A stretch of DNA of 64,000 nt from Thermodesulfobium acidiphilum (GCF_003057965.1 NZ_CP020921.1:1600916-1664915), one strand, 5' to 3'. Positions 2,200 through 62,117 are shown, counted from the first letter of the stretch. Program-made: numbers and translations. Notes: generated by a model from the letters alone, not told the origin.

Positions 2200-3171
2200 C
2201 TAAATTATGTCAAAAACTAATCTGGAAGAAAGCTTAAAAGCCTCATTAAAAAGCTCAAATTGAGCACTTCTGTCAAGTCTTGAATCAAAAAATACAAAGA
2301 ATTTTGCTTCATTCTTCAACAAAAAAGCCATCACACTTATTTGATCATCAATTAAAAGCATATTTTGTAACTTCCCAAAATCTAGCCTTAAAAGAGAGTC
2401 TTTTACCATCTTTGATAAAGAATCTAAAATTAGTGCCTTCACCTGACTATTCTCAAAAAAGTTTCTTTCAGACAAAATCACACCATCCTTATCAACCAAA
2501 ATATATCCACACGAACCAACCAGACTATCCGCATAATGAGAAAAGCCAGAAATGCTTAAAGGAAGTTGTATATTTTCAAAAACTTCAGTCTTAGAAGTGT
2601 TAGATAAATCATATTTTAGATTATTCAATGGTTCATCAGGAATATCTATACTTTTGTCGATATCTAAAGTCGCAGGTTCTTTAATATTAGAGTTAACATT
2701 CTTTCTTTTATTAAAACTGCCCCCTAAAAGACCTGTAGCAAATGGTAACAAAACTGAGGAAATAATCATAAAGGGTCCAAATTCAATCTCAAATCCCTTA
2801 TACGGAAACACTCCTATTAAAGAAGAAAAATAAAATAATATAATGTCTAAAATTAACGATGATATAACTAATATCAGAATTTTATAAATTGGGCTTATTT
2901 TCAAAACTACTGAAAAAATTAAAGAATAAATTATATAAAATACAAAAAGCCATATAAAAACTGATGTTCTAAAGGGTAAAAGACCATAAAAAGAGTCAAA
3001 AAAAGCTGAAATTGTTACAAAAAAGAATAACAAAGATGCTTCAAAAATATTAAACCAAGAATCTTTAACCGAAAAAATTGAAAAAAATTTAGCTTTTAAT
3101 TTTTGTTTTCCTTTCAAATTATCATTTTTTCCATCTATATCATGATTGACTTCTATGAAATCATCATCCAA
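2200..3171 (-). CDS. Membrane protein with C-terminal roadblock/LC7-like domain
   Basis: About four hydrophobic helices, then YILVDKDGVILS...LDFGKLQNMLL, a pattern typical of roadblock/MglB folds. Confidence 0.5.
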   Translation of the reverse strand: MDDDFIEVNHDIDGKNDNLKGKQKLKAKFFSIFSVKDSWFNIFEASLLFFFVTISAFFDSFYGLLPFRTSVFIWLFVFYIIYSLIFSVVLKISPIYKILILVISSLILDIILFYFSSLIGVFPYKGFEIEFGPFMIISSVLLPFATGLLGGSFNKRKNVNSNIKEPATLDIDKSIDIPDEPLNNLKYDLSNTSKTEVFENIQLPLSISGFSHYADSLVGSCGYILVDKDGVILSERNFFENSQVKALILDSLSKMVKDSLLRLDFGKLQNMLLIDDQISVMAFLLKNEAKFFVFFDSRLDRSAQFELFNEAFKLSSRLVFDII

Positions 3172-3213
3172 TTTTATACCTCCAAAAAATATACTGAAAA
3201 TCCTCGACCTAAC

Positions 3214-4026
3214 CTATTTAGATCTGACCCTCTTCAACAATTCATCTTTCATATCCTCAATTGGGGGACTAACCTTAAAGATCAATTCAAATGCCTTAAC
3301 GCCTTGATATAAAAGCATATCAATCCCAGATATTACAAAAGCTCCAAACTTTCTTGCCTCTGTTAAAAAGGGGGTATATTCAGGTACATAAACCATATCA
3401 AAAAAAACTTTACCACTGATATCAAAATTCTTGGGAAAGGGAGGCATACCTATAGAATTCTTTCCTAAAGGTGTAGCATTGACCAATACATCAAAATATG
3501 GTAAATCCTCGCTCCAAATTAAGGTATCAACTCCATATAATTTTGATAGATCTTTTATTTTTTCAGGGCTTCTACCCATCACCCAAACACTTGCACCTTC
3601 CTTGAGGAAAAAATATATCGCAGCCTTTGCTACCCCCCCGCTCCCAAAAATTCCTACTACTTTATTTTTCAAATCATAATTAATGTTTTCAAAAGATTCC
3701 TTTATCCCATAAATATCAGTATTATAACCACACCACTTATTGTCAACCAGAACAATGGTATTAAGCGCTCTCGCTCCAATAGCATCGTTATCAACCCAAT
3801 CGATCAAATCCATGATTGTTTCTTTATATGGAATAGTTACGTTAAATCCTAAAGCCCCCACATCAATCATCACTTTTAAAAAATCGAACAAATTTTCCTT
3901 CTCAAGATCGAACAATAAATATACCGCATCAATGCCTAATTTTTCTAATGCTCTATTGTGCATTGCAGGGGATAGCGAGTAAGAAATATCTTTTCCTATT
4001 AGACCGCTAATTCTTTTCATATTCAA
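3214..4026 (-). CDS. aroE: Shikimate dehydrogenase
   Basis: SLSPAMHN, GFNVTIPYK, GYNTD, NATPLG, MLLYQG. Confidence 0.95.
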   Translation of the reverse strand: MNMKRISGLIGKDISYSLSPAMHNRALEKLGIDAVYLLFDLEKENLFDFLKVMIDVGALGFNVTIPYKETIMDLIDWVDNDAIGARALNTIVLVDNKWCGYNTDIYGIKESFENINYDLKNKVVGIFGSGGVAKAAIYFFLKEGASVWVMGRSPEKIKDLSKLYGVDTLIWSEDLPYFDVLVNATPLGKNSIGMPPFPKNFDISGKVFFDMVYVPEYTPFLTEARKFGAFVISGIDMLLYQGVKAFELIFKVSPPIEDMKDELLKRVRSK

Positions 4027-58203: not shown

Positions 58204-58770
58204 ATGAAAAAAGTTTTAATTTTAACAGGCGATTGCGCGGAGGATTATGAAGTAAAAGTTCCTCAACAAGCTTTGATGCTTTTGGGCTATGACGTAGAAA
58301 TCAGTGCTCCAAACAAAAAGGCTGGGGATATGCTTCAACTTGTCGTGCACGACTTTACAAACCTTGACACCTATATTGAATTGACTGGGCATAGAATTCC
58401 AATAGATATAGCTACAAAAGATGTAAGGGTAGAAGATTATATAGGGTTAGTAATCCCTGGTGGAAGAGCTCCTGAATACATTAGAAGATATAACGAAGTT
58501 GTAGAGGTTACAAAAAAATTCTTCGTTTTAAACAAACCTGTGGCAGCTATTTGTCACGGCTCACAGCTATTGGCTGCCTGTGGGATATTATCCGGCAGAA
58601 AGGTCACAAGCTATCCTGCCTGTGCTACTGAATGCATAATAGCAGGAGCAAATTGGGTTGATCAAGACGTAGTAGTAGATAGAAACCTCGTAACAGCCCA
58701 GGCCTGGCCAAACCATCCTTTATGGCTCAAAGAATTTGTAAAACTCCTTGGAGCAAAGATAGAAATATAA
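58204..58770 (+). CDS. DJ-1/PfpI family protein
   Basis: EDYE, IPGGRAPEY, AICHG nucleophile. Confidence 0.93.
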   Translation: MKKVLILTGDCAEDYEVKVPQQALMLLGYDVEISAPNKKAGDMLQLVVHDFTNLDTYIELTGHRIPIDIATKDVRVEDYIGLVIPGGRAPEYIRRYNEVVEVTKKFFVLNKPVAAICHGSQLLAACGILSGRKVTSYPACATECIIAGANWVDQDVVVDRNLVTAQAWPNHPLWLKEFVKLLGAKIEI

Positions 58771-58785
58771 TGTGATGTAACTTCC

Positions 58786-58818
58786 CTAGGGGACGCAAAC
58801 TACTTTTTGCGCCCCCTA
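58786..58818. terminator. Hairpin downstream of pfpI
   Basis: TAGGGGACGCAAA...TTTGCGCCCCCTA inverted repeat. Confidence 0.7.
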
Positions 58819-58919
58819 AACCAAAGTTTCAAACTAAAAAGACAAGTAATGGCAATCCATGCCATTTGAAAAGTAGAAGTAGCTCAGGTTGTACAAAATA
58901 AAGATCTAAGCCATTCCAT
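58800..58919 (-). CDS. Candidate 39-aa selenoprotein (CxxU) small membrane protein
   Basis: GGAG RBS, ATG 58919; MEWLRSLFCTT(TGA)ATSTFQMAWIAITCLFSLKLWFRGRKK*; 7-bp hairpin starting 17 nt after the TGA. Confidence 0.45.
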
Positions 58920-58980
58920 AATTTTTTCTCCAAGTATTTTAAGTCTAGCATTATTTTAACATATAAAAATTTAAAAATTA

Positions 58981-59310
58981 TTAAATACTCTTTATGCTTT
59001 TATATAATTCTTCGCGACCTTTAACCTGATCATTCAAAGTTTTTTTAGCATCGTTTACAAGATTTAACACAGATGGTAAATTTATTTTATAAAACATCTT
59101 CTGCCCATCTTTTCTTGAATCTATAATGCCCTGTTTTTTTAAAATTCTCAGGTGCTGAGATAAGTTTGACTGTTCAACGCCTATTTCATTCAAAAGTTCA
59201 CATACACATCTTTCCCTTTCACTCAACATCAACAAAATTTGAATCCTCAATGGGTGTGCAAGGGTTTTAAAAATTTCAGAAATTAATTGATATACCAAAA
59301 CCTTTTTCAT
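58981..59310 (-). CDS. ArsR/SmtB family transcriptional regulator
   Basis: FKTLAHPLRIQIL, ERCVCEL, QSNLSQHL; GGAGG RBS. Confidence 0.93.
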   Translation of the reverse strand: MKKVLVYQLISEIFKTLAHPLRIQILLMLSERERCVCELLNEIGVEQSNLSQHLRILKKQGIIDSRKDGQKMFYKINLPSVLNLVNDAKKTLNDQVKGREELYKSIKSI

Positions 59311-59416
59311 AAAATCCTCCTAAAATTTTAATTGGTACTTTTATAAGATAATAAAATTTTAACATTTATATTATTATATTATAAAATTTTAGAAACAAAA
59401 ATAGAAGTTTTAAATG

Positions 59417-59481: not shown

Positions 59482-59604
59482 ATGGATGATATACCCGATT
59501 TATGCTTTATAAGTTTTCCCTTCAATAAACTTTTTTGCAAATCACCAAAAAGTGAGGAGGTATATTGTGTCATTTACAGGCGCTATAACAGAATTCTACC
59601 TTAG
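59482..59604 (+). CDS. Candidate 40-aa leader ORF overlapping the downstream start
   Basis: RBS GGAGGTGA; MDDIPDLCFISFPFNKLFCKSPKSEEVYCVIYRRYNRILP*. Confidence 0.45.
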   Translation: MDDIPDLCFISFPFNKLFCKSPKSEEVYCVIYRRYNRILP

Positions 59605-60862
59605 CCAAGAATTAAACAAGCCAATTTTAGATCCTGAAAACAGAAAAGTCGCCAACCTAAGAGATATTGCTGTTTGTTGGGACAAGAAAATTCCAGTTGG
59701 TAGAGGTATAAAATTCCTAAAGGACTCTAATAAGCTAATAAATATAAATCACATAAAGGAATGGAAGAAGGATGCAATAGTTTTAACTACAAACCTTGAG
59801 AAAGCAGCTGATATCGTGGCAAGGGATGAAGACATTTATATAGTAAAGTGGCTTCTTGATAAACAGCTTATAGATCTTAAAGGCAAAAAGTTAGTTAGAG
59901 TAAACGACATAAAAATATCCTTCTATTCCAAAGACTTAGAAAAAAAGTTAATACTTCTTGCTATTGATGTAGGATTTTCTGGCATTCTTAGAAGGCTTGG
60001 TATTAAGTTTTTAGAAAGTAGAATTCAACCCCAGCTAATAAGTTGGAATTATCTTGCCCCAATAAAAAAGAGAACCTCAAACTTACAACTGGCAACAGAA
60101 TTTGAGGGTTTAAAAAATCTTCATCCAGCTGATATTGCAGATATTATAGAAGAGCTAAGCCAACCAGACAGGGAGAAAATAATAGAAAGCCTTGATATAG
60201 AAAGCGCTGCAGAGGTATTAGCAGAAGCAGATATAGAAACTCAGGTAAACGTCATTGATTCTCTTGATGCAGATAAAGCAGCTGACATTTTAGAAGAAAT
60301 GCCATCTGATGACGCCGCCGACATATTAAGCGAGTTAAATGAAGAAAAATCTCAAGAAATATTAGAGCGCATGGATCCAGAAGAGGCAAGTGAAGTAATA
60401 GAATTGATGAACTATGAAGATGAAGACGTAGGATCGTTAATGACAAAGGATTATATAACGCTTACTGGAAATGAAACTCAGGAAGAAGCTCTGAACAAAA
60501 TTAAAAAAATAGCTGAAGAAGTAGAGACTATTTACGTTTCATATATAGTTGATAGCGAAGAGAAACTAATAGGAGTAATATCTTTAAGGGAGCTATTAAT
60601 CGCTAAGCCTGACGAAAAAATAAAGGATATCATGCAAAAAGACGTTATAAGTCTAAATCATTTTGATCATCACGACAAGGCACTTGAAATGTTTGCCAAA
60701 TATAATCTCTTTACAATGCCTGTAGTAGACAACGAAAACAGACTTCTAGGAATAATTACAGTTGACGATATCTTAAGGCTTCTTATACCAGACAGAAGTG
60801 ACGCTGACACCTTCTCGAGATTTGACTCGCTGAAAAAGTTCTTGAGAGAAGGTGGTGAATAA
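59567..60862 (+). CDS. Soluble MgtE-N/CBS domain protein with PRC-like N-terminus (no MgtE TM domain)
   Basis: LLDKQLIDLKGKKLVRVNDI, LHPADIADI, MPSDDAAD, CBS pair; GTG after GAGGAGG. Confidence 0.88.
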   Translation: MSFTGAITEFYLSQELNKPILDPENRKVANLRDIAVCWDKKIPVGRGIKFLKDSNKLININHIKEWKKDAIVLTTNLEKAADIVARDEDIYIVKWLLDKQLIDLKGKKLVRVNDIKISFYSKDLEKKLILLAIDVGFSGILRRLGIKFLESRIQPQLISWNYLAPIKKRTSNLQLATEFEGLKNLHPADIADIIEELSQPDREKIIESLDIESAAEVLAEADIETQVNVIDSLDADKAADILEEMPSDDAADILSELNEEKSQEILERMDPEEASEVIELMNYEDEDVGSLMTKDYITLTGNETQEEALNKIKKIAEEVETIYVSYIVDSEEKLIGVISLRELLIAKPDEKIKDIMQKDVISLNHFDHHDKALEMFAKYNLFTMPVVDNENRLLGIITVDDILRLLIPDRSDADTFSRFDSLKKFLREGGE

Positions 60863-60863
60863 G

Positions 60864-62117
60864 ATGGAAAACAAACTCTCATTATTTAAAAGAATATTGC
60901 TATTTTTAACTATAATGGGCCCTGGAATAATTACAGCCAACGTAGACAACGACGCAGGCGGTATTACTACCTATTCCATAACTGGTGCAACAACAGGTTA
61001 TAAGCTCCTTTGGGTGCTGATTCCAATGACACTTGCACTTATAGTCGTACAGGAAATGGCTGCCAGAATGGGCGCAGTAACCAGAAAAGGTTTAGCCGAT
61101 TTGATTAGAGAAAATTTCGGAGTAAAAATGACCATTTTAATACTCTTAGGGATACTTATAGCTGACTTTGGAAATACCATATCTGAATTCGCAGGCATTG
61201 CTGCAAGTATGGAAATTTTTAATATAAGCAAATATATTTCGATTCCTATTTGTGCAATATTTGTATGGTGGACAGTTTTAAAAGGCTCATATAAATTCGT
61301 AGAGAGAGTGTTTTTATTTGCATGTCTTGTTTATCTTTGTTATATACCATCTGCCTTTATGGCAAATCCACCGTGGGGAGAAGTTGCAAAAAATATAGTT
61401 ATACCCCATTTAGAGTTTAGTCCTTCGTTCCTATCCATACTTATTGGTTTTATAGGAACTACCATTACTCCCTGGATGCAATTTTATATTCAGTCATCTA
61501 CTGTAGAAAAGGGATTAACAGAAAAGGAATATAAATATCTAAGATTAGACGTAATAATGGGGAACACAATGACAAACGTAATAACATTTTTCATTGTGGT
61601 TTGCTGTGCAGCAACTCTTTTTGTTCACAACGTCAACATAACTGACGCAAAGGATGCAGCACTTGCCCTTAAGCCATTTGCGGGAAATCTTGCAAGTACT
61701 CTATTTGCAATAGGACTCTTTAACGCCTCTATCTTTTCAGCCTGCGTACTTCCACTTGCTACCGCGTATTATGTATGTGAAGCACTGGGTTTTAATGCAG
61801 GGCTTAACTTTACCTGGAAAGAGGCACCCGTTTTCTATGCTCTAACAACTTTTCTAATCTTTTTTGGTGCAACAGTAATATTAATACCCAAAGCTCCTTT
61901 AATACCTATAATGTTCTGGTCACAGGTTATAAACGGAGTTATATTGCCATTCGTACTCTTATACATGCTAAAAATTATAAACAACAAAGATATAATGGGC
62001 GAATATACAAATTCAAGAACATTTAACATAGTAGCATGGCTCACAACTATTGTATTAATAGTCCTAACTTTACTCATGATAATCACCTCTATCTTTCCAG
62101 GCTTACTACCATCATAA
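60864..62117 (+). CDS. NRAMP-family divalent cation transporter (NrmT-like)
   Basis: GPGIITANVDNDAGG, QEMAARMG, GTTITPWMQF. Confidence 0.9.
   Translation: MENKLSLFKRILLFLTIMGPGIITANVDNDAGGITTYSITGATTGYKLLWVLIPMTLALIVVQEMAARMGAVTRKGLADLIRENFGVKMTILILLGILIADFGNTISEFAGIAASMEIFNISKYISIPICAIFVWWTVLKGSYKFVERVFLFACLVYLCYIPSAFMANPPWGEVAKNIVIPHLEFSPSFLSILIGFIGTTITPWMQFYIQSSTVEKGLTEKEYKYLRLDVIMGNTMTNVITFFIVVCCAATLFVHNVNITDAKDAALALKPFAGNLASTLFAIGLFNASIFSACVLPLATAYYVCEALGFNAGLNFTWKEAPVFYALTTFLIFFGATVILIPKAPLIPIMFWSQVINGVILPFVLLYMLKIINNKDIMGEYTNSRTFNIVAWLTTIVLIVLTLLMIITSIFPGLLPS

Follow-up and report, generated by a model that had tools for sequence, protein, structure and literature searches.

In the 64,000-nt stretch of the Thermodesulfobium acidiphilum genome analysed here (NZ_CP020921.1:1600916-1664915; hereafter the window, with positions counted from its first nucleotide), the arsR gene is followed on the minus strand by a small, unannotated open reading frame (ORF) with one in-frame TGA. 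An earlier reading of the sequence (the original prediction) had put this ORF forward as the gene for a small selenoprotein carrying a hairpin similar to a selenocysteine insertion sequence (SECIS). arsR (58981..59310; 109 aa, TAA stop at 58983-58981) encodes an ArsR/SmtB metalloregulator, which matched PF01022 at 63.9 bits (cut-off 22) and NF033788 at 93.7 bits (cut-off 55). After a spacer of 61 nt on the same strand, the small ORF (58800..58919, minus; 39 codons followed by a TAG stop at 58802-58800) begins at an ATG (58919-58917) preceded 8 nt on the 5´ side by the Shine-Dalgarno sequence GGAG (58928..58931, minus), and its frame reads MEWLRSLFCTT, TGA, ATSTFQMAWIAITCLFSLKLWFRGRKK. The TGA (58884..58886, minus) is codon 12, and selenocysteine (Sec, U) at this position would give the motif C9-T-T-U12. 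Further 3´ lie a hairpin with a perfect 7-bp stem and the loop UGGAU (AATGGCA/TGGAT/TGCCATT; 58848..58866, minus) and, at the end of the ORF, a strong 12-bp hairpin (58788..58817, minus). The next gene, pfpI (58204-58770, plus), is convergent to arsR and the small ORF. The positions originally assigned to the arsR stop, the 61-nt gap, the GGAG, ATG and TGA, the hairpin and the TAG were all exact on the minus strand, and the predicted translation agreed exactly with that made by program.

We compared the locus among the four genomes that form the whole comparison set of this phylum, all of a single genus, namely the source genome (G000, 1.77 Mb) and three relatives (G001-G003). One alignment (A1), of these four genomes, spanned the interval between the ends of arsR and pfpI, and a second (A3) comprised five distinct sequences; two metagenome contigs (L059 and L060, identical in this region) and a locus from a metagenome-assembled genome (MAG; L050) supplied extra sequences. 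A small ORF with exactly one TGA was present in 4/4 genomes. One more variant was found on the two contigs, and the MAG locus, from the same genus, encodes a peptide identical to that of G002. The TGA was invariant (4/4 genomes in A1, 5/5 distinct sequences in A3) amid neighbouring synonymous sites that vary, and the GGAG, ATG, TGA, hairpin and stop were all retained in the four genomes and in the metagenome variant. The gene order around arsR and the small ORF was the same in the three relatives and on L059. Within A1, the GGAG and ATG were invariant and the spacer between them differed in both sequence and length; conservation was low in this spacer as well as in the stretch 5´ of the GGAG and the stretch 3´ of the terminal hairpin.

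The substitution pattern of the small ORF is indistinguishable from that of its neighbours arsR and pfpI. Variable columns fell at codon positions 1, 2 and 3 in 6, 0 and 22 cases, out of 40 columns each, and in 4, 0 and 16 cases when the part 3´ of the TGA was taken alone, with a binomial probability for the third-position excess of 1.2e-6 for the whole ORF and 2.5e-5 after the TGA. The proportions of synonymous and non-synonymous differences (pS/pN, by the Nei-Gojobori method, NG86) were 0.43/0 between G000 and G001 and 0.72/0.065 between G000 and G002, as compared to 0.44/0.03 and 0.84/0.09 for arsR and 0.49/0.03 and 0.64/0.04 for pfpI. For the part 3´ of the TGA, pS/pN was 0.47/0 and 0.68/0.06. 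The ratio of non-synonymous to synonymous rates (dN/dS) for the small ORF, ~0.03, reflects purifying selection of the same strength as in the two neighbouring genes. The other two frames gave pN values of 0.105-0.106 and 0.18-0.23, with pS between 0.04 and 0.23. An overlapping 40-aa ORF in another frame (58829-58951) was rejected, as its ATG was missing in the relatives and pN exceeded pS for G000 and G001.

The only later ATG in this frame is codon 19. Codons 13-18, which separate it from the TGA, showed four to five differences between the two clades, every one of them synonymous, and all five of their variable sites were third positions (chance 0.004). The restriction to synonymous changes indicates that these codons are translated in this frame, from which it would follow that the TGA is decoded. 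On this pattern, we consider it very likely that the small ORF is translated through the TGA. The prediction that the frame would continue past the TGA is borne out by the purifying selection in all of the relatives found, and in each of them the TGA and the hairpin were kept near arsR.

A threonine-dehydratase-like gene with PALP and ACT domains, located outside the window (G000:C1:1227281-1228486, minus; L066 82-1287), served as a negative control. Its in-frame TGA, at SSA-TGA-NHAQG, was present in the source genome and in 0/3 relatives, all three of which have an open frame, and probably arose from a nonsense mutation or an error in sequencing. As this TGA is unique to one genome, accidental TGAs appear not to be conserved in this genus.

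The original prediction depends on a Sec machinery, and selA, selB, selD and a tRNA-Sec gene were all found in the source genome. The single tRNA-Sec scored 77.5 bits and has the anticodon tca (the next three Rfam matches were tRNA-Ser or tRNA-Leu when checked with ARAGORN). SelA is present, as is SelB, whose gene adjoins that for tRNA-Sec, and SelD (TIGR00476, 326 bits; selD at G000:C1:1501981) has an in-frame TGA of its own. tRNA-Sec and SelB were also detected in 3/3 relatives. One TGA each was further found in a gene similar to those for formate dehydrogenase (Fdh-like) and in the gene for the large subunit of a group-4 [NiFe] hydrogenase (motif RVCGI-TGA). TGA is otherwise an ordinary stop in this genome, ending 174 of the 827 frames of at least 300 codons. 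The hydrogenase gene lies outside the window (G000:C1:574902, minus; L067 125-1219) and has Complex1_49kDa and NiFeSe_Hases N-terminus matches; Sec-type group-4 hydrogenases are already reported for Thermodesulfobium isolates in the available part of PMC13582414, which covers this gene. In the available part of the deep-Sep paper (PMC12013277), an excerpt lacking the column headings, the row for a Thermodesulfobium MAG reads '4 ... 4 4 0', which we read as four selenoprotein genes already known and no additional ones.

The stem of the hairpin in the small ORF begins 17 nt after the UGA and its loop 24 nt after, and folding of the 47-nt stretch gives this hairpin as its minimum-free-energy structure (-8.9 kcal/mol). 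Bacterial SECIS (bSECIS) elements are described in the part of PMC13188914 available to us as having a loop that lies 16-37 nt from the UGA and in whose first two positions a G is followed by G or U. This description fits the hairpin of the small ORF as well as the selD element (19-nt spacer after the UGA, 7-bp stem, loop AGGUG), the hydrogenase element (18 nt, 5 bp, loop GGUC) and the Fdh-like element (14 nt, short stem with a bulged U, loop AGUUUA). The resemblance to the selD element of the same genome extends to the 7-bp stem, the 5-nt loop with GG at positions 2-3 and a similar stability (-10.3 kcal/mol for its 47-nt stretch); the stem sequence is different, and the selD element belongs to a known selenoprotein family. 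The SECIS-like character originally ascribed to the hairpin is thus supported both by the bSECIS description, as far as that source was available, and by the likeness to the SelD SECIS. The thermodynamic z-scores of the true SECIS elements were no better than that of the candidate hairpin. Across five sequences, all 35 of 35 stem cells were paired; a compensatory change turned one A-U pair into G-C by way of two synonymous substitutions (CAA to CAG and ATT to ATC), and one G-C pair became G-U.

A strict search pattern, in which the TGA is followed after 14-22 nt by a 7-bp stem with an NGGNN loop, occurred at 15 of the 61,252 TGA triplets in the genome, those of SelD and the small ORF included, or ~0.5 per 64-kb window. 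Taken alone, the SECIS-like hairpin is no more than expected by chance; taken with the comparative data, it is far more. Three other TGAs that fit this pattern, at G000:C1:218530, 1335331 and 1750513, stand in frames that are open for 18-52 codons on both sides.

Together, a coding frame through the UGA, the conservation of the UGA with its hairpin and the presence of the Sec machinery support the selenoprotein reading, and the central interpretation of the original prediction, a selenoprotein gene behind arsR, finds support on these same grounds. We therefore consider it likely that the small ORF is a genuine, unannotated and lineage-restricted gene for a 39-residue CxxU selenoprotein. That the residue at the UGA would be Sec and not another residue we likewise hold to be probable.

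Several observations weigh against this reading. The comparison encompasses just five distinct sequences from one genus and two sub-clades. The codon-usage log-odds, at 0.78 bits for the part 5´ of the TGA and 0.28 for the part 3´ of it, were close to zero, which is uninformative for so short an ORF. With respect to the hairpin, 12 of 200 shuffles folded as well as the 47-nt stretch, and covariation was weak, consisting of a single event with a score reached by 48 of 500 shuffles. In addition, the GG of the loop is fixed by a Trp codon, such that its invariance cannot separate constraint on the RNA from constraint on the protein, and the hairpin with its U-rich tail was the sole terminator-like site in a simple scan. 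Among 16 loci with ArsR homologues from other phyla, we found no comparable small ORF with Cys or Sec (one neighbour encodes a thioredoxin-like protein of 76 aa). The hydropathy of the product (Kyte-Doolittle 19-residue maximum 1.39, for residues 12-30, with Cys26 inside) is under the usual transmembrane threshold. Finally, neither a Cys-form homologue nor any other relative was found with phmmer or in the genome scans, and the usual argument from Cys/Sec alignment is lacking.

This last point rests on several searches, in all of which a 39-residue query gives low sensitivity; Cys homologues are usual in selenoprotein families, not obligatory. When the peptide was scanned against Pfam and NCBIfam, with Cys in place of U, no family came up at E <= 10. 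A phmmer search of 1.84 billion representatives gave one match (E = 1.5e-4), a 324-aa repeat protein that we judged to be a chance match, and a profile search of 401 genomes gave, beyond the four of the genus, five matches in the 397 genomes of other lineages (E 9.7e-4 to 9e-3), all of which were unrelated on reading. No CxxC orthologue, for which the original prediction had suggested a search, was found among the 1.84 billion representatives or in the 397 genomes. A pattern scan of contigs produced 38 pattern matches of which one, the MAG locus, was confirmed; one of its two patterns spanned the U as C and was blind to Sec forms. A metagenome scan with back-translated FQMAWIAITC, a pattern that reaches close relatives only, yielded L059 and L060. 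There was no paralogue of the small ORF in the four genomes.

We weighed four other explanations against the selenoprotein reading. If the UGA were a true stop, the locus would encode an 11-residue peptide and a separate ORF of 21 codons from the ATG at codon 19. This ATG is indeed in frame and TGA is a normal stop in the genome, but the exclusively synonymous, third-position changes in codons 13-18 argue against such an arrangement, as do the absence of a Shine-Dalgarno-like sequence before ATG19 and of any other in-frame start between the TGA and ATG19, and we regard it as very unlikely. Less likely still in our estimation, to the point of being scarcely credible, is the possibility that the stretch is non-coding and represents a conserved 3´ untranslated region, small RNA or terminator region of arsR. 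The stretch does have a stop codon on one side and a strong hairpin on the other, the SECIS-like hairpin scores as terminator-like, and the whole 215-nt spacer folds better than shuffled sequences (z = -2.72); these features are consistent with a non-coding element. The three-nucleotide periodicity of the substitutions, with 0/40 second positions variable, a pS equal to that of the neighbouring genes with pN near zero, and the conserved GGAG and ATG on either side of a varying spacer are not. Moreover, no Rfam family reached threshold in the region of the small ORF (best E-value 1).

A different residue could also be inserted at the UGA, by near-cognate readthrough with Trp, Cys or Arg, or by insertion of Cys via the Sec pathway. 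The coding signature shows translation through the UGA and not the identity of the residue, and the statistics of the hairpin are weak, which leaves room for this explanation. We nevertheless consider it improbable given that the Sec system is complete and used in this genome, that there is only one tRNA-Sec-like gene (the three next-best Rfam matches being tRNA-Ser or tRNA-Leu), and that the geometry of the hairpin matches the SelD SECIS. Under inefficient readthrough, replacement of the UGA by a sense codon would be expected, and this occurred in 0/5 sequences despite a pS of ~0.7 between the clades. Lastly, the small ORF might chiefly serve as a selenium-responsive regulatory device, in which ribosomes that pass the UGA would run into the hairpin at 58817-58788 from its 5´ side and change how the arsR transcript terminates or how stable its 3´ end is. 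The final five codons of the ORF, together with its stop, do overlap the 5´ arm and loop of this strong hairpin, an overlap kept in all species. On the other hand, there is no downstream gene on this strand, pfpI being convergent, and the purifying selection on the amino acid sequence resembles that on arsR and pfpI, which points to a functional peptide over the mere act of translation. We thus place this device, like the true stop, among the very unlikely explanations.

For the selenoprotein reading, the following scheme can be proposed. Ribosomes would start at the ATG at 58919 behind the conserved GGAG, and the hairpin 17 nt past the UGA at codon 12 would recruit SelB with Sec-tRNA(Sec), leading to the insertion of Sec in place of termination and to the translation of 27 further codons up to the TAG at 58802-58800. 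The predicted product of 39 residues has Cys9-Thr-Thr-Sec12, a moderately hydrophobic stretch and an RGRKK tail, such that the Cys9-x-x-Sec12 pair would head one moderately hydrophobic helix that holds Cys26 and has a basic RGRKK end. A single membrane-associated helix is plausible, and the helix with Cys26 and the basic end suggest a small selenol/thiol peptide that is probably associated with the membrane. Considered separately, its location in the membrane is an evenly balanced call. The most plausible role would be the binding or relay of a thiophilic metal(loid), or that of a selenol-thiol redox element. Control by ArsR and such a metal(loid) or redox role are a reasoned guess that we offer tentatively, as possible rather than probable. 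Going further, the small ORF could encode an orphan selenopeptide of 39 residues without Cys relatives, possibly the shortest natural ribosomal selenoprotein, that serves as a membrane-anchored selenol ligand to capture or hand over soft metal(loid)s of the As(III), Sb(III) or Hg type within a two-gene, ArsR-controlled module; we regard this more specific proposal as doubtful.

With regard to the regulator itself, the only two cysteines of ArsR form C35-V-C37, which matches the CVC metal-site motif of the helix before the recognition helix. In ArsR proteins, a CVC motif of this kind senses As(III)-type ligands. The small gene may share a transcript with arsR, be served by a promoter of its own, or both. 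In the spacer between the two genes, the conserved TGTTAAAAT (58953..58961, minus, in alignment A1) is a possible extended -10 promoter for the small gene alone and reads TGTTAGAAT in G002 and G003. The spacer block ATATGTTAnAAT is conserved in A1, and the sequence from this block to the Shine-Dalgarno sequence is poorly conserved. The block reads like a possible extended -10 element, though it was not listed by the promoter scan. In the proposed scheme, the small gene would be either co-transcribed with arsR or driven by this conserved -10-like element.

The hairpin at 58817-58788 contains the last five codons and the stop of the small ORF in its 5´ arm and loop, the arm encoding RGRK and the loop holding codon 39 (K) and the stop. 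A1 shows a switch from G-C to A-T at one arm position between species and a single A.C mismatch in G001. The original prediction had the 3´ end of the ORF run into a terminator hairpin of pfpI; the overlap with the hairpin is confirmed, but the scan for promoters and terminators did not call it a terminator, and no U-tract follows it on either strand. It probably serves the arsR/small-ORF transcript and the convergent pfpI transcript alike, either as a shared terminator or by stabilising their 3´ ends.

Upstream of arsR (59364-59385, minus), a 22-nt AT-rich sequence, TTTATAATATAATAATATAAAT, was invariant in 5/5 sequences and contains the inverted heptamers ATTTATA and TATAAAT; it may be a promoter or an operator for ArsR. 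Divergent from arsR (window 59552-62117, plus) lies a gene for a 436-aa protein with MgtE_N and CBS domains, lacking the MgtE membrane domain, which overlaps the start of a gene for a 421-aa NRAMP-family transporter by 11 nt. This overlap suggests a coupled pair, which may share regulation with arsR. On the metagenome contig L059, ~1 kb without an ORF of at least 90 aa (2793-3806) separates arsR from the MgtE_N/CBS gene, as compared to 240 nt in the window; the side with arsR, the small ORF and pfpI is unchanged.

Discovery pipelines for selenoproteins lean on Cys homologues and a reasonable ORF length, and an orphan of 39 codons without a Cys form escapes them. If the small ORF does encode a selenoprotein, the known size range would be extended downwards, lineage-specific micro-selenoproteins would exist, and a small selenoproteome would gain a fifth gene (we saw SelD, the Fdh-like protein and the group-4 hydrogenase, and the MAG row in the available part of PMC12013277 lists four). 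If it in addition acts as a metal(loid) ligand, it would represent a new type of metal(loid)-handling component that is invisible to every homology-based selenoprotein search. Its position behind an ArsR of the CVC type is a concrete lead, open to test, that a thermophilic anaerobe may handle thiophilic metal(loid)s by means of selenium.

The MerT protein has several membrane helices and roughly three times the length of the small-ORF product. A Sec-containing putative MerT (PF02411, C/SxxU) is listed in Table 1 of a 2026 inventory, within the part of PMC13188914 available to us, and would have in common with the small-ORF product a Cys/Sec pair, a membrane, a thiophilic metal and a locus with a metalloregulator. 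The Pfam scan gave no match of PF02411 to the small-ORF peptide, and only the kind of role is alike, a role that is hypothetical for the small ORF. The same table also includes the CxxU families SelW-like (PF10262), GrdA and the CC/Se-motif family NF041239, with which the small ORF shares an in-frame UGA in a Cys-x-x-Sec context, an intragenic hairpin 3´ of the UGA with G at loop position 2, and a host with selA, selB, selC and selD. In contrast to these families, the small ORF has no Pfam or NCBIfam similarity at E <= 10 and no Cys-form relatives among those searched, and its product is predicted to have a single hydrophobic helix and not a thioredoxin-like fold. With 39 residues it would also be far shorter than the 80-aa SelW homologue described in the available part of bioRxiv 10.1101/2022.11.09.515450. 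We found nothing in the literature on a selenoprotein of such size or context, and no entry resembling the small ORF among the 119 selenoprotein families or subfamilies of Table 1, the part of the inventory consulted (PMC13188914). On the extent of that table, the small ORF appears to represent a new family of an already established type of system, one seemingly confined, as far as searched, to a single deep-branching genus.
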